Below, piece after piece: positions 2,326 to 61,900 of a stretch of 64,000 bases of DNA; position 1 is the first letter of the stretch, and each line of letters starts with the position of its first letter. Origin of the DNA: Lytechinus pictus (Eukaryota); contig NC_087251.1 of NCBI RefSeq assembly GCF_037042905.1, positions 992,001 to 1,056,000 on the forward strand. The letters run 5' to 3'. Below the pieces are notes generated by a model, which had not been told where the DNA came from, ran no database searches, and worked only from the letters and a program-made list of their open reading frames with translations. A program made the translations under genes and the position numbers.

Positions 2326-5300
2326 TTTTTTTCTTGCTCATAAAACAAGGGGTGCTGGTTTGCTCATGCTCTTGTGTGGTTCGGTTCCTTGCCGTATTTA
2401 TGTTGCATCGTACGGTCATAGCTATGACAGGTTTATAGGTACGGCACCCGTTTATTTCGCTATTGATTGCTTTGCACGCATGGCAACGAAATCACTATGT
2501 GATTATGATTTGAATTCTTCACAATCACGAGCATCGCGTTTTTTTTTCACATTTGATTGTTGCCTAAATTGTAGGGTTAGAATGATGCACTTAGTTATAA
2601 TCTGTAGAAGGTCTTTGCAGACTTTATGCTAAGCATGCATGCTCAAATTCTATTAAGTTCATCTTTCATTATTTGAATGAATGTTAAACATCTTGATTCT
2701 TGAGGACTTTCTCAACCGGGATGTATATTTCTTTTTGGTTTCTGAACCATGGTGACCATCATTCCAAAAGGTCATGATATGTCATCGGTTTGTTTAGGAT
2801 CCCGTTCGGATCTATTTTTAGTTTCTTTTTATATGTTAATTGGGGGTAGCTGGCCAATGCCTAATGTATTGTTTATTGCCGCCAATCAAGCACATTTGCC
2901 GTTTTTTCTTGTTTTTTGCCTTTTTGTGTGATTGTTCATGTGTTACTGTGTGTCCTGTTTTGTCTTGTTTTTTGTGTAACTGTTCTTCACATTCTATTCC
3001 ACTTTTATTTCCTTAACTATGGCTGCTAACACCAATGCTCCATTTCACTACTTGGATAATGATGAATTATACGACGCTTTTCAGTCTGATCTAGATACCA
3101 ATTTCAATGAAAATTCAAATAAAGCTTTTCACAATTTAGTTGCCCAGTCCATGAACTCCCAAAACAATAATCTTGATTCTGTCTCCGATCCAAATGATAG
3201 TACCTATCAGCATGCACCTTCCTATTATTTTTCAGAAAGTCAAGTTGCAAGTAAACATTTAAACAACAGTAAAGATGATTTTTTAATGTTACATTGCAAT
3301 ATTCGCAGTGCCAATAAAAATGTTGATGCTTTGCATTCCCTTCTACTTAATTCGAAACTCAACTGTTCAGTTATAGGTTTGTCAGAAACCTGGTTTACTT
3401 CTGAAACTGATTTAACATTTTTTTCACTTCCTGGTTATAATTTGATTACGAATAATAGGACAGAAAAAACAGGTGGCGGTATATGTTTGTATATTTCTGA
3501 ACAGTACGAGTATAGGCTGAGGCCAGAATTGAACCGCATGAATAACTCTATAGAAAGTTTATTTATTGAAGTAGTTATTCCAAGTGATAAAAACATTGTA
3601 ATTGGGGTTATTTACAGACCTCCAAACTATCTTCGTGATGACTTTTTGAACAATTTCAATGAATTACTAAATCACCCCATCATGCTTCATAAAAACTGCT
3701 TTTTACTAGGGGATTTTAATGCAGACCTCTTAAAATATGATTCAGATGCATTCATACAAAAATTCATGGATTCATTTCTTACTGCGGGTTTTTTACCAGC
3801 AATTACTAAACCTACCAGAATTTCTACCAACTCGGCCAGTCTTATTGATAATGTCTTTACAAATGTACGACTTGCGCTGTCATCTGGCATAATTCTTTCC
3901 GATCTATCTGACCATTTTCCAATATTCCTCCATTTCCAACTCAATAATGGTTTCTCGGCAAACTCGGCTTCTTTTCACATACAACGTGATTTTTCTGAAA
4001 ACAATATAGAACATTTTATGCAAGAGCTAGAAAACACAGACTGGTCTGGAATCTACACTATAGAAAATGCAAATGATGCCTTTGAATCATTCATGAGCAT
4101 AACATCTTCTAAGATGGATCACTGTTTTCCTTTAATCCGAAAAAAAAAATCTAACAACAAAAAGATTCCAAGGTCCCCATGGGTCTCCAAGGGTATTTTA
4201 CGATCCATTAATAGAAAGAATAATCTTTATTTAAAATCAATTGTTAAACCATGTGATAAAAACAAGAAAAAGTACAAAGATTACAAGAACATTCTTACTG
4301 GTATACTTAGGAAAAGTAAAAAAAAGTATTTTTGTAATCAGTTTCAATTATTCAAAAATGATATACAAAATACCTGGAAAATAATTTAGAATGGTTTGCA
4401 TGGTAATTAAAAAAAATCTATTGTTTCAAAAATAAATGTTGATGGCGAAATTATAGAAAATCCACTTACTTTGGCCAACACTTTCAATGATTATTTTTCC
4501 AGCATAGGCCCAAATCTTGCCAGACTCATTCCAGACTCTCCTAACCACTTTACTGATTTTCTTCATGACCCCAACCCAAATTCAATATATTTTTCTCCTA
4601 CAGATGAGGCAGAAATTGCGGATATAATTCATGGCTTAAAAAATAAGCAAAGCTCGGGGCATGATGGCATCAATAACATTTTGTTAAAAAAGAATTGTAA
4701 TACCATTGCTAAACCCTTGGCATATATCTATAATTTATGTATGTCTACTGGGATTGTTCCTTCATCGCTGAAACTAGCTCGAGTTATACCTGTATTTAAA
4801 AAAGGTGACAGTACTGCGTTAGGTAATTATCGACCCATATCACTGCTGACCTGTTTGTCTAAAGTACTTGAAAAATTGATATTTGTTCGTACGACGAAAT
4901 TCTTTAATTTGCATGATTCATTTTATCCCTTGCAATTTGGTTTTCGTGAAAATCATAATACTACACATGCATTATTAACAATAGTTGATAAGATTGCCAG
5001 CGGAATCGACAAGTTCCAACATACTGTTGGGGTGTTCCTGGACTTCTCCAAGGCTTTTGATACCATTAATCATGACATTTTATTACACAAACTTAATTAC
5101 TATGGAGTCAGGGGAATAGCCTTGGAGTGGTTCAGGAACTACCTAGACAATAGAAAACAATTTGTCTCTTTCGAAAACTTTAACTCCGAAACAAAACTTG
5201 TTACTTGTGGGGTTCCGCAAGGCTCTATTTTGGGTCCCCTACTTTTTCTTATATACATAAATGATTTTCGTAAGTCCTCCAATAATTTATCATTTATTCT

Positions 5301-6770
5301 GTTTGCTGACGATTCTAATATTTTTTTCTCCCATAAGGATCCACGCCATTTGCTTGCCACCATTAATCACGAACTAGTACATGTATCTGAATGGATCAAA
5401 GCTAATAAACTATCCCTTAATCTCCAAAAAACAAATTATATGCTCTTTAGTAATATCATAGATGAACTTCCAGGTAATATAATTTTTGAAAATACTAATT
5501 TACAAAGAGTTGGCAGTACTAAATTTCTTGGGGTAACCATTGATAATAATCTTTCCTGGAAAGAGCACGTTGATCACATTTGTAAAATTATTTCGAGAAA
5601 TATTGGTATCATAAACAAAGTAAAATTTTTCTTTCCCACTCATATACTATTTAATTTGTATTCAACTTTGATCCTGCCTCATTTAAACTACGGTATAACA
5701 GCATGGGGGAATTGTGCTGACTGCCTCCTGAACAGAATTTTACTTTTACAGAAAAAGGCTATTCGTATTATTTGTCATGCAGATTTTCGTTCACACACTG
5801 ACGAACTTTTCTATAAATATAATATTTTGAAGATTGGTGACTTGTATCGATACAATCTCGGAAAACTCATGTATAGTTTAGATAAAAATGAACTTCCAAA
5901 TATTTTTTATTCCATGTTTACAAAAAATGTCGATATTCATCATTATCCTACTAGGTCCGCCGGGCTCTTTCATCCACCAAGAGCGAAAACCATCCTTTTA
6001 AATAAAACATTTATTTTTACAGGTATCAAACTTTGGAACTCCCTTATAGAATCATTACGTAACAAGCCAACACATTTAAGTTTCAGTCGAGGGTTAAAGA
6101 AAATTCTTATCCTTGGGTATAAACCCCAGAACTTAAACATTTCTGTATAAGCAGCTACCACCTCTTGTTCTTCTTCCCTTCTTATTTTCTTCCTTCTTCT
6201 CTTTCCCCCTCCCTCTCACATTTCTTTTTTTCTCTCTCTCTCTTCCTATCACCTTAATGTCTAGTTCTATTGCTTTTCTTATTTTCCTGCTTGTCTATGT
6301 TTTGTAGTTTGTTTTGTTTTGTTTCTTTTCCTTTTTTTTCTGTCTTGTCCTGTTTTGTTTTTGTTTGTGTGCCTTTTTTGTTTTTGTCTTTGTTTTGCTT
6401 TTAGTATCTGTCCTGTCTTGTCCAAGTGATTGTCTGTTCACACACTCCTGAACTCATGTATTTTTTTTTATACAGCAGGGGTATATATGATATAATATTT
6501 TTTGTTAATTGTAACATAGTAGGCTTAAAAAGCTTGACCCCACTAGTATTCTTTTTCATTGTACAAACCTTTTTAATTTACGATTTGAATTTTATTGATC
6601 AAAGATATACTTTAATCAACTATTTATTGCAGGGAACCCATACTAACAAGCTTTGCTTTCCAGTGGGTTCCCTTTTTTCATTTCTGTATATTATACTTTT
6701 GTGTTTTGCTATACATTGTAACTTTTGTTAAATTTTGGAATGAAAAAGAATAAATGCAATGCAATCAATC
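2326..6770 (+). mobile_element. 5'-truncated LINE of the L2/Crack (CR1 group) type
   Basis: APE+RT ORF2, T-rich upstream spacer, 3' UTR stem-loop GGGAACCCA...TGGGTTCCC (6632-6672), AATAAA at 6748 followed by a (CAAT)n-like tail. The 5' boundary is approximate. Confidence 0.85.
3019..6150 (+). pseudogene. LINE ORF2 (apurinic-like endonuclease + reverse transcriptase) with two in-frame stops
   Basis: APE motifs LSETW, GGG, IYRPP, GDFN, IDN, SDH; RT motifs YRPISLL, QFGFR, DFSKAFD, GVPQGSILGP, FADD, KFLG. ORFs 3019-4389 and 4471-6150 share a frame; stops are TAG 4387-4389 and TAA 4408-4410. Confidence 0.93.
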
Positions 6771-6901
6771 AATCATCATTATCATTACCACCATTATCAT
6801 CATCATCATGAACACCTTTGTCATGGTAATCATTTATTTTCACAATTTTATGATCAGGTTTGTCAAGGAGTTCATTTCTAAATATTTCTTTTTACAAAGA
6901 G

Positions 6902-8250
6902 GGGCAAGTCCAAGAAAAGGTCACCCTAGAAGGCAAAATTTCATCTTTGATTTAAGAAGTTATCTTTGGTGGGGTACGAAAGCCCAAATGTTGAATTCTA
7001 AAATTTCATTAAGAAAAATTTGATAATATGCATATTTATGCTAATTTGGGGCACCTAATTTGCATAATTGGTAAAATGGGCGTTACGTATGGGACAATTA
7101 TAAAAACTCATAGAAAATGAAAACAAAACTTCTGAGATTTAGTCATAGGTGGGACATGGACCCCCTATCATCTTATTACTTTTGGGGGAAAAAGTGGTGT
7201 CATCTAATTAATTATGCAAATTAGGTCTTGTCCAAGGATGGAATGTCCCATACGTAACATTTTGAGGATGTTTTTTTCTGTTATTTCTCATAATACAATA
7301 CTTGTATTGTTGCATCTCTGGGAAGTTCTAATTTATCAAGTATGAAAATGTTATACCACAAAAAGTTTCAAAAATAGAGTTTTTTTTTAATTAAAAGTTA
7401 ATTAAAAAATTGTTACGTATGGGACAACATGTTGCGTATGGGACATTTACACACAATGTCAATGGGGAGATTTGTGTACAAAGTGAATGGAGAAAAACAA
7501 AGTTCAAGAGTGCTCTAAAAAGTGATTATTTACCTTTTCTTTAGTTTTTAAAGACTGATTTGTTATGAATACTGATAAATGAAAACAATAGAAGCGAAAA
7601 AATTGTGAAAATAGAAAAATATGAAAAAAAACAAAAACAATAGAAATACATAAGAAATTCATGAAACCATGAAAACAAGAAATTTTTTTTTGTTGTAATG
7701 GCTAATTTCCCTTTCAGTCATATCAAATATGTCTCAATAGAACATTTTAAAAGAAAGAGACTCGTTTGTTATTTCCATATTTTAAATTATTTCAATTTTT
7801 TGAATTATGGGGAAAATTATGTACGTACTCTATGGGGACAAAATGTCCCATACGTAACATGTCATTAATTTGTTTAATTAGAGTCTGTAATTAGAGGGAT
7901 TTGGCTTATGACATGAAACTTACCTTAGATATACTAGAGTATTGTGACTTCTATCACACAAAGTTACAAGTTGTCAAATGAAATACTTTCAGAGAATTCT
8001 CAAAGTTCTTGAAAAAAATGTTTTTAAAATGGTCTTTTTTCTGCGTCCCATATGTAACGGCACATCTTTTCTCCCTAAAAGGTCAAGGTCAAGGTCATGT
8101 ATCACCATTTTTTGCATGATTATTCTTCTCCTAGATGTCTACCATCATTAGGGTATTCAATCTAATCAAAGTCATTTAACACTATTTTTCAGGTCATTAA
8201 AGCCTCTGAAATGTCCCATACGTAACGCGCGCGAATTCTTGGACTTGCCC
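6902..8250. mobile_element. Non-autonomous DNA transposon, Sola2-like (GGG termini, 4-bp TSD)
   Basis: 15-bp terminal inverted repeat (TIR) GGGCAAGTCCAAGAA/TTCTTGGACTTGCCC flanked by AGAG on both sides. About 7 internal copies of GTTACGTATGGGACA in both orientations. The superfamily is inferred from termini and TSD only. Confidence 0.8.
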
Positions 8251-8319: not shown

Positions 8320-8875
8320 AGGGGAATCCAACCCAAACAAAAACTTGTTTTTAGAGGAAAAAGGAAAATCAAACAATGAGAAAGTTATGAATTTTCAAAA
8401 GCTGTGAATATTGGTAATCACTATAACCATGGAGACTTCAAATTGGCCGCATACGTGATGTCATAGTGATGTAAGGCAAGGACTACTTTTCAATTACTCC
8501 AATACATAAATTGGCTAAAATTACATTTTTTTCAAAAGTTTTTCTTCAAATTATATTTTCTTTCATGAGGACATAAAACAATATACTACCTGGGCTATAT
8601 TTAGATTACTGCCCCAGGGGAATGGGTACTTAAGAGAAAACCACAAATCACTGATAATAAAGTACATGGCCTATGGGAAAGTTGTCCTTGCCCCTAGTCA
8701 TAATATTCTTACCCAGTTGCCAATTTGAAATCTACATAGTCTTAGGGATCTTAATTTTAAAACAGCCATAACTTTCTTATTGCTTGTCCGATTGCTTTCA
8801 AACTTTCACAATTCTGTTTTAATTATTTTTCATCCTTTCAAACACATGATTTTATGACCAAGGCTGAATTCCCCT
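8320..8875 (+). mobile_element. Kolobok-like MITE (AGGGGAATCC family), copy 1
   Basis: AGGGGAAT...ATTCCCCT termini at TTAA-like sites; homologous to 59713-60307. Confidence 0.8.
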
Positions 8876-9382
8876 TTAATCACTATATTGCCATCATGAA
8901 CTTCTTCAGCTCTATAAGTTCAGGCCACAATTGGGTCAGAACTTCAGACAAGTTTTATTGCGCATTTTTGAGGCTACTATATTCGCTATAAGCAAATGGC
9001 ACAATTTTTTTATTTCCTGTAAATGAAATCTGTCTAATATGGAGACATTGTTGTGTATTATGATGTAAGTTTACACATATATGATAAGAAGGCAGAAAGG
9101 AGTTATGCAAGGAATAAATGTAATGATGATTATTAAAAGATAAATCGCTGATGTGGTTTACGGTACACCATGTGGAGTGTTATAGAAACAGTGGATAGAA
9201 GAAGAGAAGAAATGGATAGGCGAGAAAGTGGAGATTTGAGAGTAGAGTATTCTTTCTTGAAAGTAGTCCTGAAAAGGACTGTAAACCAGGAAAGATTGAT
9301 GAGTTGAGAACAGCTTGAGTAGTAGAGCTAATGAGGAGATGCTGGCTTGAGTCGGTGAGTAGAGATGATGAGTAGTAGAGAG

Positions 9383-9423
9383 ACTCGACGTTTCGGACAG
9401 CTTGACTGTCCGTCTTCAGGAGT
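9383..9423 (-). ncRNA. Minimal type I hammerhead ribozyme in the 3' pseudo-LTR
   Basis: ACUC-CUGAAGA-C-GGACAG(UCAAG)CUGUCC-GAAAC-GUC^GAGU: hammerhead core, 6-bp stem II, 4-bp stem I, palindromic ACGU stem III. Predicted cleavage between 9387 and 9386. Confidence 0.85.
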
Positions 9424-9642
9424 GAGTGTTCGTTCGGCGTGCGGCGGTACTTGTGGCGTGCGTGTGGACGTGGGGGAAAGCGCTGGGCCGGCGGTCGCGG
9501 CGGGCTGACGTCGTAGGTGGCGCTCTGTGCGTGGGTCGGCGGTTTTGGCGGGAAACGAGTTAGCGTGGTATGCGGACGCGGTGTGTAGACGGCGGGGTGA
9601 GTTCCGGCGGCGTGTGTGTGTGTCGGCGGCGTGGTAGGTACA

Positions 9643-11430
9643 TCAGTGGTGGCGTTCTGTGCGTGTTGGTCGGCGGACTCGTCGGGTAGGCTTCGGCGGG
9701 AGTGAGTGGGTGGCCTGGTGTACGGATGAGGTGTTGGGTCGTCGGCGGAGGTTGTAGCGAAGTGTCGGTGGCGGTGGTGTGTGCGTCGGCGAAGTTGCTG
9801 GTTTGGTTGGAGATGCAATCAGACTGCTGTGTTGGGTAGGAGGGCTTGGTGGGGTGACGGTGGACGGCGGGTTGGTTGTGGATTGGTTGGAAGTTGGGTG
9901 GTGACGTAGGATTGGGTGCCAGATGCTGTTGATGTGGAGGCCAGGGTCAGGTTGTGTTGATGTATCTCAATGGCTTCTCTGACCCTTCTGGTATTCCAGT
10001 GCCGGATGTTGGTGATTAGGTGGCTCTTGTCCCAGTCTATGCGGTGATTTTCCTGTTGTGCGTGTTTGACGATGGCAGATCGGTCCCAGTCGCTGCGTCG
10101 GTGGTGGGTCTTGTGTTCCTTGAGTCTGGTGTCGAAGTCTCGGCCGGTTTCTCCAATGTAGACTTTGCCACAGTCGCAGGGGATCTTGTAGACGCCTGGT
10201 TGCTTGTTAGATGGGTGCTTGTCCTTGTGAGAGTGCAGGATGGAGTGTAGCTTGCGAGAGGATTGGTGTCTGACGAGGATGTTGGCAGAGTGAAGGATGC
10301 GTTGTAGTCGGTGTGAAGTCTTGCCGATGTAGGGAAGTACTATGGTGGCGATAGGCTTGGTTTCGGATGGGTTTCCGGTGCTGTTGGTGCTGGGTTGGTG
10401 GCTGGACGGTTGAGTGTTGATCCTTCTCCTGGGGTAATGGTTGATGGTGGTGAGTGCATTGGTCACGTGCTTGAGTTCCTGCTGTAAGTGTGTCTTGTCG
10501 CTGAGTTGGTGGGCTCGTCTGATGAGAGTGTCGGCGACTGATTGGTGGACGGATGGGTGGTGGTGTGAGCGGGAATTGAGGTAGCGGTCTGTGTGGGTGG
10601 GTTTTCGGTACACCTGGTGAGATGGGAATCCAGATGGTGTCTTGGTAATGAGAACGTCTAGAAAAGGAATTGAGTTGTCGCGTTGGGTCTCCATGGTGAA
10701 CTTGATGCTGGGGTGCTGGTGGTTGAGGTGGTTGAGAAACTGGTGAAGGTCGGGTGTGCTGTGCGGCCAGATGACAAAGGTGTCGTCGACGTAGCGGAGC
10801 CAGAGTGAAGGAGGTTTGTCCGCAGTCTTGAGTGCTTGGTGCTCAAAATGTTCCATGAAGATGTTAGCGATGATTGGTGAGAGAGGTGAACCCATGGCTG
10901 CTCCTTGTAGTTGTTTGTAGTAGTTGTTGCGCCATTTGAAGGAGTTGGAGTTGAGACAGGTGAGGAGGAGGTCGTGGATCTGGATGCGAGGTCTGGGTCG
11001 GTGATCAGGCGTTGCTTGATGATGTCACATGCTTGGTCTACAGGTACGCTGGTGAAGAGGGAGACGACATCAAAGCTGACGAGTGTGTCGGAGGGCCGGA
11101 TCTTGGTCTTGGAGACGACGTCAATGAATTGCTTAGAGTTGGTGACATGGTGCTGGGTTTGACCTACGAGTGGCTGGAGGATGTTGGCCAGATGGCGTGC
11201 TGTGTTGTAGCAGGGTGACCCGCGGGTGGAGATGATAGGACGAAGAGGAGTGTTAGGCTTGTGTATCTTGGGTTGTCCGAATAGGATTGGTGACTTGGCT
11301 GAAGAAGATCTGAGTTGGAAGTAGAGTGCCTTGGGTAGTGCGTCGGATCGGTGTAGGGTCAGCAGTTGTTGGTTGATTTTCCTTTCGTTGGCCGGAGTTG
11401 GGTCTCTGTTTGGAGTTTGGAGTAGGTGTC
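9643..11430 (-). pseudogene. Penelope-like RT/GIY-YIG ORF with frameshifts
   Basis: Conserved motifs continue across frame breaks near 11410, 10980 and 9950. The restored C-terminus DPGLHINSIWHPIL runs into a P/T/S-rich tail and stops at TGA 9645-9643. Confidence 0.88.
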
Positions 11431-11509
11431 CGTCTTCAGGAGTGAGTGTTCGCTCGGCGTGCGGCGGTACTTGTGGCGTGCGTGCGGACGTGGGGGAAAG
11501 CGAACACTC

Positions 11510-11550
11510 ACTCCTGAAGACGGACAGTCAAGCTGTCCGAAACGTCGAGT
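11510..11550 (+). ncRNA. Minimal type I hammerhead ribozyme in the inverted pseudo-LTR
   Basis: Same motif on the + strand; predicted GUC cleavage after C11546. Confidence 0.85.
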
Positions 11551-11939
11551 CTCTCTACTACTCATCATCTCTACTCGCCGACTCAAGCCAGCATCTCCTC
11601 ATTAGCTCTACTACTCAAGCTGTTCTCAACTCATCAATCTTTCCTGGTTTACAGTCCTTTTCAGGACTACTTTCAAGAAAGAATACTCTACTCTCAAATC
11701 TCCACTTTCTCGCCTATCCATTTCTTCTCTTCTTCTATCCACTGTTTCGATAACACTCCACATGGTGTACCGTAAACCACATCAGCGATTGTACATGCCA
11801 CCATGCAAACCTTCAAACAACATCTAAAAGATAAATGTTGCAATGATCAGATTTTCCATGTACAGTATAAGTGCATTAATACCTACATACATGTAACCTT
11901 GACAGATAAATCACTGTGTGTACATTACATGTGCCGATG

Positions 11940-29695: not shown

Positions 29696-30654
29696 AACAA
29701 GTGGAATGCCTCTGGCCGTCTCACCTGCATCACGCGATTCAATATAGCAGCAGTGCTGATTTTGAAAACTTCTATAACTCGCACAAGATGTTCAGTGATA
29801 CTTGGTTACTCGTATTTCCACGTTTTATGAATTAGACCAATACACTTATAGAGATATGATGGCAATTCAACAAATACCCCCAACGTGGCCAAAGTTCTTT
29901 GACCTTACATGACCTTTGACCTTGATCATGTGACCTGAAACTCGCACAGGATGTTCAGTGATACTTGATTACTCTTATGTCCAAGTTTTATGAACTAGAC
30001 CAACACACTTTCAAATTTATGGCTGTAATTCAACAAATACCCCAATTTGGCCAAAGTTCATTGACCCTAAATGACCTTTGACCTTGATCATGTGACCTGA
30101 AACTTGCACAGGTTGTTCAGTAATACTTGATTACTATTATGTCCAAGTTTCATGAATCAGATCCATAAACTTTCAAAGTTATGATGGTAATTCAACAGAT
30201 ACCCCCAATTCGGCCAAAGTTCATTGACCCTAAATGACCTTTGACCTTGGTCATGTGTCGTGAAACTCATGCAGGATGTTCGGTGATACTTGATTAACCT
30301 TATGTATAAGTTTCATGAACTAGGTCCATATATTTTCTAATTTATGATGACATTTCAAAAACTTAACCTTAGGTTAAGATTTTGATGTTGATTCCCCCAA
30401 CATGGTCTAAGTTCATTGACCCTAAATGACCTTTGACCTTGGTCATGTGACATGAAACTCAGGCACGATGTTCAGTAATACTTGATTAACCTTATGGCCA
30501 AGTTTCATGAACTAGGTCCATATACTTTCTAAGTTATGCTGTCATTTCAAAAACTTAACCTCAGGTTAAGATTTGGTGTTGACGCCGCCGCCGCCGTCGC
30601 CGTCGGAAAAGCGGCGCCTATAGTCTCACTCTGCTATGCAGGTGAGACAAAAAA
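29696..30654 (-). mobile_element. Helentron-associated (HINE/DINE/pearl-like) element with tandem core repeats of about 162 bp
   Basis: Subterminal inverted repeat GTCTCACCTGCAT/ATGCAGGTGAGAC, CTTGTT 3' end on the minus strand, (GCC)n microsatellite, about 5 core units starting near 29777, 29939, 30100, 30264 and 30456. Confidence 0.8.
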
Positions 30655-31260: not shown

Positions 31261-32722
31261 GTGCACTTGTTTAATATATATATATATAGTGTGATGATAA
31301 GTTTACTTCTACCAATCGCTGTTGAGTTGTGAATATTAAACATAATGAAATGAGGCGAGGCCAACTCAACAGATGACGCAGGACACCATTATTTGCTTTA
31401 GCTTTCGCCTTTTAATTGAGACTTCGTCAGAAGCGTCTGAAAATATAAGGAGATACAACATCCAAGTTTGTTTTGAACATCAATGAATTATCACCAAGTT
31501 GAATATATTCCATAATGACAAATTAATGAATGAACAGATAAATAAATTAATGAATAATAAATAATTAATTCAATTAAAATAATAATGATATATTCGTGAA
31601 TTTTCGTAAATGTATATTGAAGCCAAATAAATCAAGTAAATTAAAAGACAAGTTAAATCTACTGAACAAATGAATAAAATACAATTACAAATACGGTAAT
31701 ACTAATTCTGAGATTTTTTTCCAGCGTAACATAATACAAACAAAATATAGGGCCTACATTATAGTGGTTTCATTCATTTGATTTGATAAAAAGGTATCTG
31801 TAAGAATATATACATATGTAAATATCGTTAATTATAATGATATGATTATAACTCTCAAATATACTAAATAGTCATCAATATACATGTACATATCATGTAC
31901 TTTATAGCAAGTTTTGAAAACTAAGTGATGTCGTTTTTTTTCCGTAGATTACTAGTCAAGATTTATAAATTGAATCGAAAGCGTGCATGTTTCATATGAA
32001 TAGATCGAGATGCTATATTTTACCCCTTTCCTTTTATTTCTTTTTCTCTTTTTGTTCTTGGTCATAAACTGACTTTGAAAACTGTTGGTTTCAGTAATCA
32101 AAATTGAAAAATGACATTTTGATTACATTCCGTCATCATAAATAGCTAAGTTACTTTTCTAACTAATCAAATAATTATAGTGCGAAGTTTGAACTGCCCT
32201 TTTTGGACATACAGACGATAAGAACTTGGCATTTTAGGCACTTTTTGAAAAGAAGGCATACATTACTGAACAGTTATGAGCCGATGGCGACGCACGAGCT
32301 AAAATTTTTGATATAGTGACATGCAAAATTCATTCAAGGACTATTTCTATGAATTCCCCAAGCCGGTTACATATCTCACTAATTAAATGTGAGCGCGAGG
32401 TGTGAAGATCCGAAATTTTAATATTCAGACCTGAAAAAGAACGTTTTAACTTTAAGAATTTATGAAAATTATTAGGCGGATAAGCATCAGAATACACGAC
32501 TTCGATAATATCTTTGGGGACATGGCTTATTATGTCCCCCACCCTTATTATTTTTTGTCTGACACCCATGCCTGAAACTCCCCTATTGATTTCTTTATAC
32601 CCCCCCCCCAAAAAAAAAAAAATGCATGATTACGATGTCAGCTCGCTATTTTTCTTTTTTCTTCCGACTTATAGTTATAGCGTACGAGCTACCGTACTAG
32701 CAATTCGGAAGAAAGCGGTAAA

Positions 32723-32787: not shown

Positions 32788-35700
32788 GTGAGAATAAAAA
32801 GAAATTTAAACGCTGTATTAAGTTTTATTCATCATGCCCTTGAAATGAAATCACTAAAGTTATATAGGGTCTACAAATACAATTTACAACAGTAGCTGCG
32901 CCGGTACTAAAAAAAGGCGTGACCGTACGGTACCGCCCGCCCGGAGGAGCGGCGGCAGGCGAGTTCGAACTTGCGCTCTCTATTCCGAGCAGCGTTCTCG
33001 CCAGGATTTTTCTTACGCGTGTCGGAAACCCGCCGATTCGGCGATGGCCAAATTTGCACGTGATGTTTTGATTTTCACATGCGCTGCGCTTTGATCCGAT
33101 CCAAAGTCAAGTTTCATTGCCAATCCGCGAAGTTCAATAGATGATGTACGGTAATGCTGTTTTAATCGGCGGCGGACACCAACCTAAAAAACTGATATCG
33201 GCGAAAATATTGGAATGTTAAGTTGTTATTTATCTCAAAATTTAGGGGCATATTTTGTCTGGATATGTTTAAAACTGTTTTGAGGTGTTAATGCATTAAA
33301 ATATATTTCATATACCTTTCGTTATGGACTCCCGTTCTCCGAGAAGAAATATAAATCACGCATTATTTGTAAATTTCTTACAACGGCGGAAAATAAAATA
33401 AAACAAAATAGAAGTCACAAACATCTCAGATTAATGAGCGATCGATTTGGGAATGTTTTAAAATTGTTTTTGAGGTCCTAACGTGTTGAAATATATTTAT
33501 ATACCTTTCGCTATGAACTCTCTAAGAAATGATGCACTATTCTGACAACGGCAGGAAGGATTATAAAACAATAGAAGTCACAAACATCTCAGATTAATGA
33601 ACGATCTATCAGGACATTTTTAACATTGTTTTGAGGTGTTCTACCTGATGGCCTCCTGTCAACGACAAGGCTGTTTGCCGATGATTGTGTCATTTACACT
33701 TCTGGCACAAATTCTAATGACTTTCAAATCCTCCAAGACGATCTGTCAAAACTAGAAGAGTGGCAGAATAAATGGGCCATGTCCTTCAATCCAGCCAAAT
33801 GTGTCATCATGAAAATACCATCCAAGGCAGTACAGATTCCAACAGAAAGAGATTACACCTTCTGTGGCCAAAAACTACAAGAAGTGTCTACATGCTCTTA
33901 CCTTGGTGTTGAAATGGATAACAGGATGCGCTGGGACGCCCAGATCAACAAAGTCTGCTCCAAAGCTTCCAGAGTACTCGGTTTCCTGAGAAGGAACTTT
34001 TGGTCTGCTCCCAAGGAAATAAAACAACTTTCCTACCAAACGTTGGTGAGACCAATCCTGGAATACGCCTCCCCTGCATGGGATCCCCATTACAAGAAGG
34101 ATACCCAGAAAATAGAAGCCATTCAGAGAAAGGCAGCTCGTTTCTGTATGGGGAACTACAGACAAACCAGTAGCGTCACAACCATGTTACGGGCCTTAGA
34201 ATGGGACTCATTGGAAGACAGACGGAAATACAGTAGACTGAGCCTAATGTTCCAAATAATCAAAGGTCTTGTTGCCATCAACCCCCCAAAAACGTCATCC
34301 AGCAAACCACCCGGCAGACTAGAGGAAATAGTATCAAGCTCCAGCGTCTACTAGTCAAAAGGGATGTTCATAGATACAGCTTCTTCCCTCGAACTACCAA
34401 AGATTGGAACGAGTTAAACATGGACACAACATTGATAAACTCATTAGACTCTTTCAAATCCAAACTCAATCAAAAACCTAGCAAGTGACCTGCTTACTTG
34501 GTGATTTCACACACATCAATAAAGTTGGCGGAGTACAGCAAGTCTGCATATGCCGACTTAACCCAAGACAAGACAAGACAAGTGTTAATGAGTTAAAATA
34601 TATTTGATATACCTTTCGTTGCGGACTTCCGTTCTCCGAGAAGAAATATAAATCACGCATTATTCTTAAATTTCTTACAACGGCGGAAAAGAAAATAAAA
34701 CAAAATAGAAGTCACAAACATCTCAGATTAATGAGCGATTGATTTGGGAATGTTTTAAAATTGTTTTTGAGGTCCTAACGAGTTGAAATATATATATATA
34801 CCTTTCGCTATGAACTCTCTAAGAAATATTAATGACGCACTATTCTGACAACGGCGGGAAGGATTATCATGATTATAAAACAGAATAGAAGTCACAAACA
34901 TCTCAGATTAATGAACGATCTATCAGGACATTTTTAACATTGTTTTGAGGTGTTAATGAGTTAAAATATATTTGATATACCTTTCGTTGCGGACTTCCGT
35001 TCTCCGAGAAGAAATATAAATCACGCATTATTCTTAAATTTCTTACAACGGCGGAAAAGAAAATAAAACAAAATAGAAGTCACAAACAACTCAGATTAAT
35101 GAACGATCGATTTGGGAATGTTTTAAAATTGTTTTTGAGGTCCTAACGAGTTGAAATATATTTATATACCTTTCGCTATGAACTCTATAAGAAATATTAA
35201 TGATGCACTATTCTGACAACGGCGGGAAGGATTATAAAACAGAATAGAAGTCACAAACATCTCGGATTAATTAACGATCTAACAGGACATTATTAACATT
35301 GTTTTGAGGTGTTAATGAGTTAAAATATATTTGATATACCTTTCGTTACGGACTCCCGTTCTCCGAGAAGAAATGTAAATCACCCATTATTATTAAATTT
35401 CTTACAGCGGCGTAAAAGAAATTAAAACAAAATAGAAGTCACAAACAACTCAGATTAATGAACGATCGATTTGGGAATGTTTTAAAATTGTTTTTGAGGT
35501 CCTAACGAGTTGAAATATATTTATATACCTTTCGCTATGAACTCTCTAAGAAATATTAATGATGCACTATTCTGACAACGGCGGGAAGGATTATAAAACA
35601 GAATAGAAGTCACAAACATCTCGGATTAATTAACGATCTATCAGGACATTTTTAACATTGTTTTGAGGTGTTAATGAGTTAAAATATATTTGATATACCT

Positions 35701-38700
35701 TTCGTTGCGGACTTCCGTTCTCCGAGAAGAAATATAAATCACGCATTATTCTTAAATTTCTTACAACGGCGAAAAGAAAATAAGGCAAAATAGAAGTCAC
35801 AAACATTTCAGATTAATGAACGATCAATCTGGGAATGTTTTAATATTGTTTTTGAGGTCCTAACGAGTTAAAATACATTTATATACCTTTCGCTATATGA
35901 ACTCTCTAAGAAATATAAATGACACATTCTGACAACAGCGGAAATGTAAATAAAATAGAACAGAATTCACAAACATATCACTAAACAGATCACTTGGATT
36001 GTGAAGCGTCTCGGCTTGATAGGGAGGTATAAACCGGGATATAAATGATAGTCTTTAATAAAATTGTTGAAGATTCATAATATATTTGTAAAGAGTTTTG
36101 ATGTGATATCGACATGATTTATGATATAAAATCATTCTTCGAAAACCAAAATGAAGCTTACAGCCAAAGCAAGTGATACCTCCTTCGACATAAGGTACAT
36201 TACGTAATACCTTGAGTGACCCAGCTGGGCCAAGTCTGTCATCAAGACACTCGACAACAAATTGAGATAATCTGTCGAGATTTGCTGAACCATTAAATCA
36301 GGTAAACATGAGATAAAAATCATTTCTCTTGGGACTCATTTGGGCAGCCACTGAGGTGATTTTAAAACATGAGCCACGCGAGCAATTGCCTTGGGTGGTG
36401 ATGGACATTTCATCGATTTCTTTTTTAATCAGCAACTTTACAAATAAAAAATAATAACATTCTAATAACTTTTTAAATCTTTGATGGATTTTCCTCAAAC
36501 TTTCACCAATATTTATCATTATTTTTTTCTCCTATCTTCACAATAAACTTTTTGTCAGGGTGAACTGCCCCTTTAATGTTTGGTCACTTGAAAATGACAC
36601 CTACGTATCATGAACGTGTTTTCAGTTGGGAAAATTTTGAAATATACAAAACCACTTATCGTTTATTTCTACCATGTTTATTTTTTAAAGAAAATTGAGA
36701 CTTCGAAAACGTGTTTTTGACCATTTTCATCATTTTGCAATTCAAATTTCCTTTAGAAAGATGTTGCAAAGTCTTAGGGATATTTAATGATCTGTACGAT
36801 GCAGGATCTAGGGGCGGGGGAGTTTTTTTTGTATGGTAGTTTTTATTTGACAACTTCAGTTCATATACAAAATAAAAAAAAATATTAAAATACATATAAG
36901 AAATAGAAGTTTGATGTCTTTACAAATTGATAAATACCTTGACAACTCATAAATTTAACACCATTTTCCCCCCTTAAGTGTTACAATAAAACACAATGTC
37001 AGACATCTTCCAATACATAATTATAAATAACATTGATGATAATAATATGCATTAAGAATAAAAACTTCTACAATTAATTCAACATATAGATTTTTTTTTC
37101 CAGTGTCAAACATCAACATAAAAAAGAGATTTTCCAAATACACATTGGCATGACATATCGATTAGAAATACCTAAAAATATATTTTTAGATATTTCTAAT
37201 CGATGTGTCGATCATGCGGTCTCATGCCACCACCCCCCCCCCCCCCGCCCCTAGATTATTAATCAACAGAAGAAACTGTATACACATGTATGTGAAAAAC
37301 AATACAAGAAATTATAGTCTGTTTTAGATGAAAGAATGAAAAATAAACGTTAAAAACAAGCAATTAGCCGTCAAACAAAGAACATTAACTTTACATCTCG
37401 CTCCCGCGCCCGGGATCTCGTTTTTCTCCTTTGACAAAATCATGCACACACGTGTCGCTCTAAGCCCCATTTCCAGCAAACTAGCCAACACTTATTGTGA
37501 GTAACTTGTGACATGACAGCAGATCAGAATGACATGAGAAATTGAGAATGAATGTTAAGAATATTAGAAAGTAATTAGCGGGAAAATTATGAGGAACAAT
37601 TCATTTTATGATAAAAAGTTCTTGAAAACTATCGGAAAACGGTATCATGTAAAAATGAAAGGCTACGTCGGACCCGGGTCGCACCGCGGACAATTCAGTT
37701 CTAACATACATCGTAGCATGCATGTCCGGCTCAGCTAGGCGCGCTGGCAACGCTAGTGTGGCTGCTCAGGCTGCCTTGGCTGGCTAGCCGGCTGGAAGTG
37801 GAAATGCGCCAGTTTCTATGCATGGATATTTTCCGGTCATCAAAAATAAGATCGTAGTTTGTTGCCGAAATGATTCTGAAAGTAAACATCCTTTATTTTT
37901 GAGGATTGATGATGAATGATGCAACAATTATTTCCGATGACTTTTCCCCACTTTTTATTATTATTTTTTTGCCTGTGTCGCTCGCGTTTTGCACGTGATG
38001 CATATAGAGCTTGTGGACTTTACGTGTGTCGCATGCGACGCGTGTGTTCTACACTGGCTAGAACGTTGATTTCCGTGCTGTACTGTCAAAGACAGTACAA
38101 GATTACTTCAAGCGCTATGCAGATACAGTACACATGGCGCCCCTCCAATTCTCTACACCTTCAAGCATTTCATTGATACTAAATCTAACTGAAAGCATTT
38201 TATTTTTAATTATGCCCACTGTTTTCTTTAAATTCTAAAATTTATTTTAGTAATAAATATTAATTACCGGTACATTATTAAACACACAAAGTATTTTATG
38301 TAGGTCTACAGAGAATATTCAGTAATATTATTTCCAATGTTTTTTTTCTTGGTTGTAAAAAAACATCGCCAGAGAATAAAAAATGACAGTTAACGTTTTT
38401 GTGTTTTTAGTTGGACATTTGTTAGGTATATTTGGCATGTTTAAATTACTGAAACTACCTTGGGTAAATGAACAAATAAATAAATAAATAAATATATGAA
38501 TCATACTTTGATTATTAAAGTGCACAATATACACATTTTCTTTTTTTTTTATGCAGGGAGAATAAAAGACTGGATCTTCAGAAGCGCTTTGAGAATTATA
38601 TGATGTCTGATCAAAATCTGTAAGTTACTTTTTTTGTTTTAACAACATATCCATAGCCATATTTTTAAAAGTGTGAAAAAGATAATTAGTGGTATAAGGT

Positions 38701-60327: not shown

Positions 60328-61323
60328 TCACTCAGATGAAAGTCCTGTCAGCCTTTCGCTGACCTCCCAAAGTTTAGTAGCAACAGCATCATCAGCTGGT
60401 CCTCTAACCTCTGGGTAAGGTTCTTCTTTGCAGTTGCCATAATATTTCCCAGATGCTTCCTTGAGCTCCTCAGCAACAGCACAGTAAATGGTAGTCTGAG
60501 CTCCGTACCGGGGAGATTTCATGAAGAGCCATCGGAGAGGGAATGTAGCAGCCCAGAAAGCTTTAGAATATCCAAGATAACGTGAAAGTTCTGTGTTGAT
60601 GACACCTGGATGTAAGGTGTAAGAGGTGACGCCTTGGCCACTGAGTCGTCTGCTCAGCTCCTTCCCAAACAGGACGTTGGCAAGCTTACTATCAGCATAA
60701 GACTTGGTCTTGTTGTATTCTTTTTTGTCTGGATTAAGCTTTGAAAAATCAAGATGCCCTCTCTTATGGAGAGCAGAAGACACGATGATCACACGAGATG
60801 GTGAAGAAGCCTTTAGGACATTTAAAAGTCTGTTGGTCAGAAGGAAGTGTCCAAGATGGTTGACTCCAAATTGCATTTCAAAGCCATCTTCTGTCTTCAT
60901 ATATGGAGTGTAAAACACACCTGCATTGTTGACAAGGATATCGAGTCTGCCAATTTTGTTACAGAATTCATCACAAAAAGCATTCACTGACTTCAGTGAT
61001 GCCAAATCCAACTTCATCACAACTAGTTCCCCTGCATTAGTATAATGTCTGATGTGTTCAACTGCTCTTTGACCCTTTGCAATATCACGGCAAGCAAGGA
61101 TTACTCTCGCTTCACGGCGAGCAAAATCAAGGGCAGTCTCCTTCCCTATTCCCGTATTTGCACCCGTTACAATGGCCGTCTTTCCTGTCAGCTTGGTAGC
61201 ACTTCTATATGCAGCACCCCTGAACTTCAGTTTGGTAAATATTACCAAACTAGCACCAAGAACAAGTCCTGCACAGACCATATCCCCTGGAGCTCTCCAT
61301 TCTGATTTTCTTTCCAATTCCAT
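60328..61323 (-). CDS. Retinol dehydrogenase 11-14-like short-chain dehydrogenase/reductase, 331 aa, single coding exon
   Basis: N-terminal hydrophobic anchor, TGANTGIG Rossmann motif, LACRD, NNAG, TEDGFEMQFGVNHLGHFLLT, catalytic YADSK, HPG. First ATG at 61323; the paralogue cannot be fixed by eye. Confidence 0.93.
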   Translation of the reverse strand: MELERKSEWRAPGDMVCAGLVLGASLVIFTKLKFRGAAYRSATKLTGKTAIVTGANTGIGKETALDFARREARVILACRDIAKGQRAVEHIRHYTNAGELVVMKLDLASLKSVNAFCDEFCNKIGRLDILVNNAGVFYTPYMKTEDGFEMQFGVNHLGHFLLTNRLLNVLKASSPSRVIIVSSALHKRGHLDFSKLNPDKKEYNKTKSYADSKLANVLFGKELSRRLSGQGVTSYTLHPGVINTELSRYLGYSKAFWAATFPLRWLFMKSPRYGAQTTIYCAVAEELKEASGKYYGNCKEEPYPEVRGPADDAVATKLWEVSERLTGLSSE

Positions 61324-61900
61324 GTTGCAAATCAAAATCTGGCACTGCCGGCTGGTTTTGATCAATCTACAGTAACATTATCCCTCTTCAGACAATTCCA
61401 AATCATTGGATCTAAATCTCTTACAAATACACTGTCTCGTTATATGATGATGTAACTCAATAATTGTTCAGGATAAAGACTCTTGTCAACAACTGTCAAC
61501 TGAGACTGGCAAGATCAAGATCCAACTAGCAGACTACACAAATCTTCAATGAGTCCTCTTTAGGAAAATGGTCTTTATCTAGAAATTAGGGTTTATTATT
61601 CTATTTTCATTTCTTTAATTTATCTTTTATATTAAATCAAGAAGTAATGAAAATTAAATTTTTTTGATTTAATTTTGTTTTTGCTTTTTTAAGATCAAAT
61701 TTGAATCCGGACTTCTATTTTGCGATTATCCATGAAGACCATGATGAACCTCAAAAGTTCTAGTAAAAAGAAACTACCTTCGAAAGGGCTACTCGCATGA
61801 TCAAATTCTTAGTCGTCTCGATTCGCTTAAATTTCGAGTTGATTTCGGATTTATCCAATGAGACGATCCGTTACATCTACTTTTCATTGGAGATGCTTAC

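Follow-up and report, generated by a model that had tools for sequence, protein, structure and literature searches.

A broken Penelope-like retroelement of Lytechinus pictus with inverted pseudo-LTRs carries a histone-type stem-loop beside its hammerhead ribozyme

Introduction

Penelope-like elements (PLEs) of the Penelope/Poseidon type are the closest described systems to the locus analysed here, which lies in a 64,000-nucleotide stretch of Lytechinus pictus DNA (contig NC_087251.1, positions 992,001 to 1,056,000, forward strand; hereafter the window). A typical PLE has an inverted, 5'-truncated copy beside the upstream pseudo-long terminal repeat (pLTR) and a tail of 30-40 bp (Craig 2021, PMC8557442, fig. 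2). Similarly, Pen2a_Av has two direct pLTRs and one inverted pLTR, with an overlap at the joint, a tail holding the first codons and a target-site duplication (TSD) (Arkhipova 2013, PMC3846280). In the same paper, microhomology deletions in PLEs were reported, and self-priming on an antisense template was proposed for such joints. Metazoan PLEs carry minimal hammerhead ribozymes (min-HHRs) with an extra base, a palindrome, a long helix II and a short helix I; pairs on opposite strands have been reported, monomers were found inactive and dimers weak (Cervera and De la Pena 2014, PMC4209133). The role of the PLE hammerhead is still debated (Craig 2021, PMC8557442; Frangieh 2024, PMC11167929). 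In addition, the Poseidon protein nicks and extends both target strands and starts at two internal RNA sites bounding the tail, with uncut RNA as its main substrate (Frangieh 2024, PMC11167929).

A second background concerns the stem-loop at the 3' end of histone mRNA. [quoted passage not shown] In human histone genes, the histone downstream element (HDE) lies about 8-13 nt downstream; its distance is also said to follow a fixed rule (PMC7026596), and histone messages are held to be the sole animal mRNAs ending in this hairpin (PMC10388802, PMC5054213).

The retroelement at this locus is of the Penelope/Poseidon type, is broken and has the inverted layout already published. The literature likewise contains inverted pLTRs, hammerheads on opposite strands, their extra base, a stem III that is a palindrome, and small interfering RNAs (siRNAs) from inverted arms. 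An initial annotation of this DNA took direct pLTRs to be the usual arrangement and the inversion to be odd; in fact, the inverted layout is the typical one in Craig 2021 (PMC8557442) and Arkhipova 2013 (PMC3846280). The inverted hammerhead arrangement itself therefore matters little, having been described before and standing in a dead copy. What is new here is the histone-type hairpin beside the PLE hammerhead. No published PLE or other retrotransposon with a histone stem-loop or SLBP was found in a limited literature search; supplementary alignments of Cervera 2014, Craig 2021 and Lunse 2017, or Repbase or Dfam, may already show echinoderm pLTR hairpins. The main text of Craig 2021 (PMC8557442) does not contain the word "histone", nor does that of a 2026 retrozyme preprint (10.64898/2026.07.22.740005). 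Taken as a whole, we consider it probable that the locus is a dead PLE in a known layout, that its hammerheads are likely silent by-products, and that its hairpin is likely an SLBP site in the active family, the last part being graded separately below.

A histone-type stem-loop beside the hammerhead

The features that carry this finding are as follows.

9383-9423, - strand: minimal type I hammerhead, sense to the open reading frame (ORF), predicted cut 9387/9386
11510-11550, + strand: the inverted copy's minimal type I hammerhead, cut predicted at 11546/11547
11653-11668, + strand: histone-mRNA-type stem-loop of 6 bp with a UUUC loop and a G at stem position 2, lying 106 nt past the cut site
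9265-9280, - strand: histone-mRNA-type stem-loop of the 3' pLTR copy, mirror of 11653-11668
11674-11682, + strand: purine-rich, HDE-like nonamer, 5 nt after the stem, absent from relatives
11759-11778, + strand: conserved box directly upstream of the tail, common to the related loci L039 and L082

The hammerhead-hairpin-box module is a real conserved structure. The 16-nt hairpin forms in its context with pair probabilities of 0.83-1.0 in folding, and it arises in 1 of 100,000 shuffles; the pLTR shuffles taken together gave 1-3 of 100,000. Among the related loci sampled (80 of 499 metagenome loci), L039 is the sole one with such a hairpin; it is present in both pLTRs with pair 4 swapped, together with the common box before the tail, and the L039 protein groups with a starfish (Patiria) copy in the tree. 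A search of genome contigs with the box alone gave three matches, and the sole PLE-like one, L082, has a hairpin with a canonical G-C first pair; L081 and L083, which showed neither hairpin nor ribozyme, were discarded as chance. The assembly that contains L082 (G001) gave 11 hairpin-pattern matches, seven with perfect stems, all on small animal-like contigs. Six of the seven perfect stems adjoin a ribozyme remnant, the box or both; the four imperfect matches were dropped. When the small contigs of this assembly (257 kb) were searched for the ribozyme first, the hairpin stood 10-14 nt after the cut in four of five distinct sites, the fifth holding a one-base variant, and the hairpin background in this test was 0.005 per 200 nt. 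In distant related loci, the hairpin followed the ribozyme in 0 of 26 cases.

Across eight aligned copies, all 48 of 48 cells are paired, with two-sided changes at pairs 1, 3 and 4 (three of the six pairs). Covariation as high was reached in 2 of 500 shuffles, and slid controls paired in at most 52%; the first three rows alone gave no significant covariation (45 of 500 shuffles). The stem G2-C, the closing U-A and the UUUC loop are invariant in all eight copies. The hairpin resembles the histone mRNA 3' stem-loop (RF00032) in its 6-bp stem, UUUC loop, G2-C, pyrimidine-purine pairs 3-5 and closing U-A. It differs in scoring below the Rfam cut-off, in a first pair that is mostly A-U, in its flanks, in a downstream element that is absent or too close, and in its position within a retroelement repeat and not behind a histone ORF.

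Several observations weigh against a histone-type role. The Rfam Histone3 match at 11648-11694 reaches 15.9 bits, below the cut-off of 34, and L039 and L082 give no Histone3 match at E 5. Pair 1 is A-U and not G-C in six of the eight copies (L084 and L087 have the canonical G-C), the 5' flanking AA occurs in none of the eight, and the 3' A occurs in five. The HDE-like nonamer, which we take to be the sea-urchin HDE, is present in the window only, 5 nt from the stem, and was not seen in L039 or in the G001 modules. As for the alignment, the pattern that yielded five of the eight rows itself fixes part of the stem, a single assembly supplied six rows, and L090 and L091 are near-identical; the pair counts are therefore not independent events. 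The shuffles, moreover, ignore kinship.

With these points in mind, we tentatively suggest from sequence comparison that the pLTR hairpin may be used through SLBP for the stability or translation of PLE RNA, because it retains the base that SLBP reads and varies by compensatory changes only. In an active family, PLE RNA would thereby be protected or translated in eggs and embryos as histone mRNA is, with no U7 cleavage involved. If SLBP does bind, a retroelement has borrowed the histone-mRNA pathway. A wider proposal is that an echinoderm-centred PLE branch built the three-part hammerhead-stem-loop-priming box module and exploits host SLBP for protecting or translating its RNA, the uncapped 3' cleavage product included, in eggs and cleavage-stage embryos, in which histone messages predominate; this is conceivable and somewhat doubtful, and would give PLE hammerheads a testable job. 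U7-type 3' processing was also considered as a family-wide role and rejected, the downstream element not being conserved. U7 cleavage is unlikely in that role because the flanking adenines are mostly absent and the HDE-like nonamer is confined to the window and too near the stem; in addition, its cut would fall upstream of the priming sites.

Use by SLBP is no more likely than a signal for the element's own protein or a generic role. The hairpin may be a binding or packaging signal for the element's own RT-endonuclease (RT, reverse transcriptase), or a generic stabiliser, and it may descend from a captured histone 3' end that SLBP no longer uses; we put this at a little under an even chance. 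The box and tail, at which the Anolis protein binds and begins reverse transcription (PMC11167929), come 45-135 nt downstream of the hairpin. The hairpin also stands in the 5' untranslated region of the ORF unit and not at a known RNA end, and its flanks and HDE misfit the histone consensus. However, its fixed parts (G2-C, U-A, UUUC) and its covarying pairs 1, 3 and 4 track the Rfam histone model, the canonical G-C first pair is kept in L084 and L087, and distant PLEs manage without the hairpin, as the count of 0 in 26 shows.

Other observations were made on these related sequences. G001 is a bacterial assembly with 14 small contigs (C1-C14) of 39% GC that hold PLE pieces and are apparently misbinned animal DNA. 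In L090 and L107 (around 6837-6902), pLTR ends stand head-to-head, joined inside hammerhead stem II, and each end then continues into a hairpin and box. L089 has a perfect stem; it was left out of the alignment, with no ribozyme, box or recognisable histone ORF. Two tandem histone-type hairpins lie there behind a short repeat (around 1475-1535, + strand), one imperfect and one canonical with ACCAC and a purine-rich downstream run, and no histone ORF was recognised in the 1.5 kb upstream. In L039 (5445-5530), an initiator-like motif falls on the first hammerhead base and is preceded, at about 28 nt, by a TATA box; the two pLTR copies of L039 have different core mutations, and a tRNA-like piece lies at 3065-3132.

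Anatomy and borders of the element

The element is bounded and built as follows.

9134-9145: TSD, left copy, 12 bp, its last 3 nt also matching the pLTR end
9146-9482, - strand: 3' pLTR without tail
9643-11426, - strand: ORF remnant, RT then GIY-YIG, C-x-C within the core
11427-11502, - strand: partial direct pLTR of 76 nt that holds a third hammerhead's 5' half (11443-11427), fused to the RT ORF
11499-11502: inversion joint, 4 nt common to the direct and inverted copies
11499-11787, + strand: inverted pLTR copy, beginning 11 nt upstream of the hammerhead
11788-11824, + strand: one-sided PLE tail, 34-37 nt, with start codon 11803 and the first ORF codons
11825-11836: TSD, right copy, 12 bp

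The terminal inverted repeats of about 290 bp that had been annotated were measured at 290 nt with two mismatches (9143-9432 and 11501-11790). The extent first given, 9143 to 11790, was correct for these arms and incorrect for the ends: the element spans 9146-11824 (2,679 bp), since the tail of 34-37 nt, present at one end only, and the TSD had been overlooked. The right end is placed at 11824 and not 11790: in family reads and contigs that extend beyond the pLTR, the next 30 letters, compared by eye, equal 11791-11820 (296 reads in RNA run X24; 44 contigs in DNA run X1, with a weaker consensus). The family start codon is at 11803, and the first eight codons (MQTFKQHL) equal the N-terminus of the L. 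pictus protein P0124, after which the window sequence diverges from it. A 12-bp direct repeat bounds the element, whereas the same search at 1,798 random window position pairs gave no repeat of at least 12 bp; against this, the TSD 12-mer occurs once more in the window, at 61618.

Aligned with 9407-9482, the partial direct pLTR (11427-11502) shows two mismatches; it has 4 nt in common with the inverted copy and ends inside stem II of the third ribozyme. Together with 11499-11526, it forms a perfect 28-bp hairpin. At sites 9433 and 9465, the family has the base of the upstream direct copy; therefore, it is the 3' pLTR that carries derived changes. To the left of the insertion, at window positions 8370-8790, lies an old inverted-repeat element with arms about 80% alike, very deep in all four mapped read runs and likely a miniature inverted-repeat transposable element.

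Between the arms, the - strand encodes RVT_1 (E 8.5e-8) and GIY-YIG (E 3.7e-5), the RT followed by a C-terminal GIY-YIG in one broken but collinear ORF, which bears out the initial assignment to PLEs. A DNA transposon or DIRS reading of the terminal inverted repeats was ruled out, the domains found being those of PLEs only. The ORF is dead: it is broken in four places and about 277 N-terminal codons are gone. Frame breaks lie near 11411 (2 extra nt), 10983 (about 22 nt lost) and 9950 (about 10 nt lost); the break at 10983 falls on a 5-nt microhomology (from a loose end in two contigs), and the junction at 11427 would also fall on 5 nt of microhomology, judging from two translated frames of relatives. 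The CCHH motif has both cysteines between GIY and YIG (GVYKIPCDCGKVYIGET), and its downstream histidines are invariant in alignment A1. The linker between RT and endonuclease (EN) has no cysteine, hence no CX2-5CxxC zinc finger of the kind found in Neptune and Nematis. The DKG motif N-terminal to the RT core is lost in this copy and invariant in 19 aligned relatives.

The nearest proteins are Lytechinus copies at 92-96% identity. In a tree of 36 rows, built without named Neptune, Nematis, Naiad or Athena references, the window copy groups with Lytechinus and Strongylocentrotus copies (97/94), and this group falls within a mostly echinoderm set of 22 rows (97/95). Compared with EN+ PLEs of the Penelope/Poseidon kind (PMC8557442, fig. 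2; Pen2a_Av and Pen2, PMC3846280), the element is alike in RT followed by GIY-YIG, two core cysteines and the lack of a linker zinc finger. It is also alike in the inverted copy next to a partial direct pLTR, the short joint overlap, the one-sided 30-40-nt tail with the first codons, the TSD and the microhomology deletions. On the other hand, the upstream direct pLTR here is cut within the hammerhead, and the pLTR has the histone-type stem-loop.

The layout recurs in relatives. An inverted arm is present in 12 of the 80 related loci, and L002 has a hammerhead on each strand. Among the 24 loci with room on both sides, eight are inverted (five of 16 sequence clusters) and none is direct, a bias that is overstated, as short-read contigs collapse direct repeats. 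Direct flanking repeats in five of the 80 loci all start at contig base 1 and were left out of the count of arrangements as possible collapsed tandems. In three of the 12 inverted loci, a 12-13-bp TSD comes with a one-sided offset of 30-34 nt; no TSD was found in the other nine or in L082.

Hammerhead ribozymes and predicted folding

The hammerhead core annotated on each strand is present, the motif at 9423-9383 (-) being identical to that at 11510-11550 (+). The + motif consists of stem I ACUC/GAGU (4 bp), CUGAAGA, the extra C, stem II GGACAG-UCAAG-CUGUCC (6-7 bp in both copies) and GAAA-C-G-UC. The palindromic stem III and the single extra C were likewise correctly recognised: both copies show CUGANGA, GAAA, UH, stems I and II, G10.1-C11.1, the extra base 9/10.1 and the palindromic 15.2-16.2 that define min-HHRs. 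When the 340-nt pLTR was dinucleotide-shuffled 20,000 times, a loose hammerhead descriptor matched eight of the shuffles; shuffled windows gave a mean of 0.03 matches each (200 shuffles), and the real window gave one extra weak match, at 31430 on the - strand. Rfam hammerhead families gave no match here at E 10 or at the gathering score, which we attribute to the absent stem III. In 24 of the 80 related loci, 26 hammerheads were found, all with the extra base though the descriptor did not demand it, against a null of 0.05 per shuffled set. Hammerhead covariation was seen in 12 rows and is partly circular, ten relatives having been chosen by a pairing descriptor. The ribozyme is no different from the min-HHRs of Cervera 2014 (PMC4209133): stem I of 4 bp, stem II of 6-7 bp, the extra base 9/10.1, G10.1-C11.1, palindromic 15.2-16.2 and opposite-strand pairs are all alike. 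The published opposite-strand pairs, however, stand 100-700 bp apart, and here the distance is about 2.1 kb.

In minimum-energy folds of the whole element, 289 (+) and 288 (-) arm pairs form with the ribozyme within the duplex, so the long double-stranded panhandle anticipated for a read-through RNA is borne out in prediction. Read-through RNA is thus predicted to bury the ribozyme in double-stranded RNA. On the + strand, four transcript lengths were folded, and in each of them the local 28-bp hairpin sequesters the core (probability 1.0). In isolation, the extra C pairs with G12 (probability 0.98), and in the natural context, stem I has a probability of about 0-0.01. The energy of the active dimer is -22.5 kcal/mol, that of two folded monomers -28.8 kcal/mol and that of the ribozyme with its antisense -83.7 kcal/mol. 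Cross-strand dimers are predicted to be disfavoured, and a lone monomer in RNA starting inside the element should not cut unaided. Both hammerheads here are likely a silent by-product of insertion. Since the copy is dead, nothing at the locus need be under selection.

Proposed insertion history

The locus is a clean insertion record (TSD, one-sided tail, 4-nt joint, ribozyme uncut at both ends) that fits the two-start-site, both-strand chemistry of the Anolis element. The endonuclease would have nicked both target strands 12 nt apart. By means of 2-3 nt of homology, each nick would then have primed reverse transcription at one of the two internal start sites that, as in the Anolis element, lie on either side of the tail. 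One cDNA would comprise the pLTR, the ORF and part of the upstream pLTR, and the other would comprise the tail and the pLTR to just beyond the hammerhead. Finally, the two cDNAs would have been joined at the 4-nt overlap. Two nicks, two start sites and 4-nt joining would together explain the TSD, the one-sided tail and the inversion. The template RNA was probably uncut, because both copies retain the ribozyme whole across the cut site. In addition, a loss of about 1.1 kb at a microhomology, reaching from the upstream ribozyme's stem II into the RT, would have taken away the sole in-cis dimer partner.

We infer the twin-nick route; the self-priming on an antisense template described above is a published alternative that counts against it. 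Between the end of the inverted copy and the ribozyme there are 11 nt here and 2 nt in L039, the copy stopping upstream in both, and read depth drops about 25- to 80-fold at the place where the inverted copy stops. This agrees with an uncut template and with transcription that begins just ahead of the ribozyme; upstream divergence would look alike. Compared with Poseidon_Ac of Anolis carolinensis (Frangieh 2024, PMC11167929), the architecture, the tail between two RT start sites and the AT-rich target are the same, and the Anolis protein P0150, presumed to belong to the Poseidon_Ac family, is 43% identical over 84% of the query. The ORF of Poseidon_Ac begins in stem II, whereas the start codon here is 256 nt after the cut site.

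Alternative explanations of the inverted layout

The inverted repeat is hardly likely to be an assembly artefact. Such structures do trouble short-read assemblies (Craig 2021, PMC8557442), and no examined read or contig spans the locus; nevertheless, the arms differ at two sites, the tail is one-sided, the 12-bp TSD closes the unit and relatives share the plan. The initial annotation further proposed cleavage by pairing with RNA from the opposite strand, and this idea is not supported. As a working design, with ribozymes on opposite-strand RNAs pairing and cutting each other in trans, the inversion can be argued from several sides: the two motifs are identical with a palindromic stem III, so that an intermolecular dimer can be drawn, PLE hammerheads are held to act as dimers (PMC4209133, PMC6765202), bidirectional pLTR transcription has been argued (Arkhipova 2013, PMC3846280), and short RNAs beginning just upstream of each ribozyme would be without antisense. 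Yet the dimer costs about 6 kcal/mol relative to two monomers, with the duplex to antisense more favourable by about 55-60 kcal/mol. In addition, read-through RNAs of opposite strands are wholly complementary, stem I scarcely forms in its natural context, the copy is dead and the layout is an ordinary insertion product. We therefore regard such a design as very unlikely. Less remote, though still improbable, is that the inverted copy mainly triggers host silencing, with panhandle RNA giving rise to siRNAs against an abundant family. A panhandle is predicted on both strands, siRNAs match inverted Penelope regions in transgenic flies (PMC3681739), rotifer Penelopes are covered by antisense small RNAs (Arkhipova 2013, PMC3846280), and pLTR sequence is abundant in the RNA of a related species (run X24). 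However, a scan of 41 longer ORFs (of 107 in the window) gave no host gene around the element, hence no known read-through, and the locus itself is not represented in the four runs; silencing would moreover be a consequence and not a selected function.

Read depth, copy number and comparison with retrozymes

A search of sequencing runs gave a best share of 0.29 and listed no RNA run that contains the locus; reads from four of the 24 listed runs were mapped to 8700-11426. The flank at 8882-9063 is almost uncovered in the four runs, and depth over the pLTR segment 9146-9427 exceeds that of the ORF body about 20- to 340-fold in DNA run X1 and at least 30-fold in RNA run X24. This excess implies many solo or non-autonomous copies, and pLTR sequence in the RNA of a related species. 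Several contig joints jump 90-160 nt to 9379-9383, where the ribozyme has its 3' edge. Read ends did not pile up at any position, the cut site included, in 25% of a library that is apparently unstranded and probably from another species, and nothing was drawn from this result. No pLTR variants were among the 40 listed of 267 variant rows. The tail DNA pattern gave no match in metagenome contigs, and scans of viral contigs found nothing.

Non-LTR retrozymes (PMC7229834; Li et al. 2026, 10.64898/2026.07.22.740005) are alike in that hammerhead-bearing, pLTR-sized pieces far outnumber full elements. The present locus differs in having an ORF remnant and a ribozyme of the minimal kind and in lacking a tandem array; the tandem non-coding hammerhead units by which retrozymes are recognised were not found at the locus.

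Other features of the window

Elsewhere in the window, a LINE-type element on the + strand (2980-6150) has an AP-endonuclease ORF (469 aa) followed, after a short break, by an RT ORF (579 aa). On the - strand, an unbroken 349-aa ORF at 60328-61377 encodes a short-chain dehydrogenase (adh_short, E 1e-29). In addition, an RVT_1 fragment (33635-34354, + strand) lies beside a 359-bp tandem array of about four copies (34582-35976), and a 163/192-bp tandem array is located further upstream, at 29776-30582.

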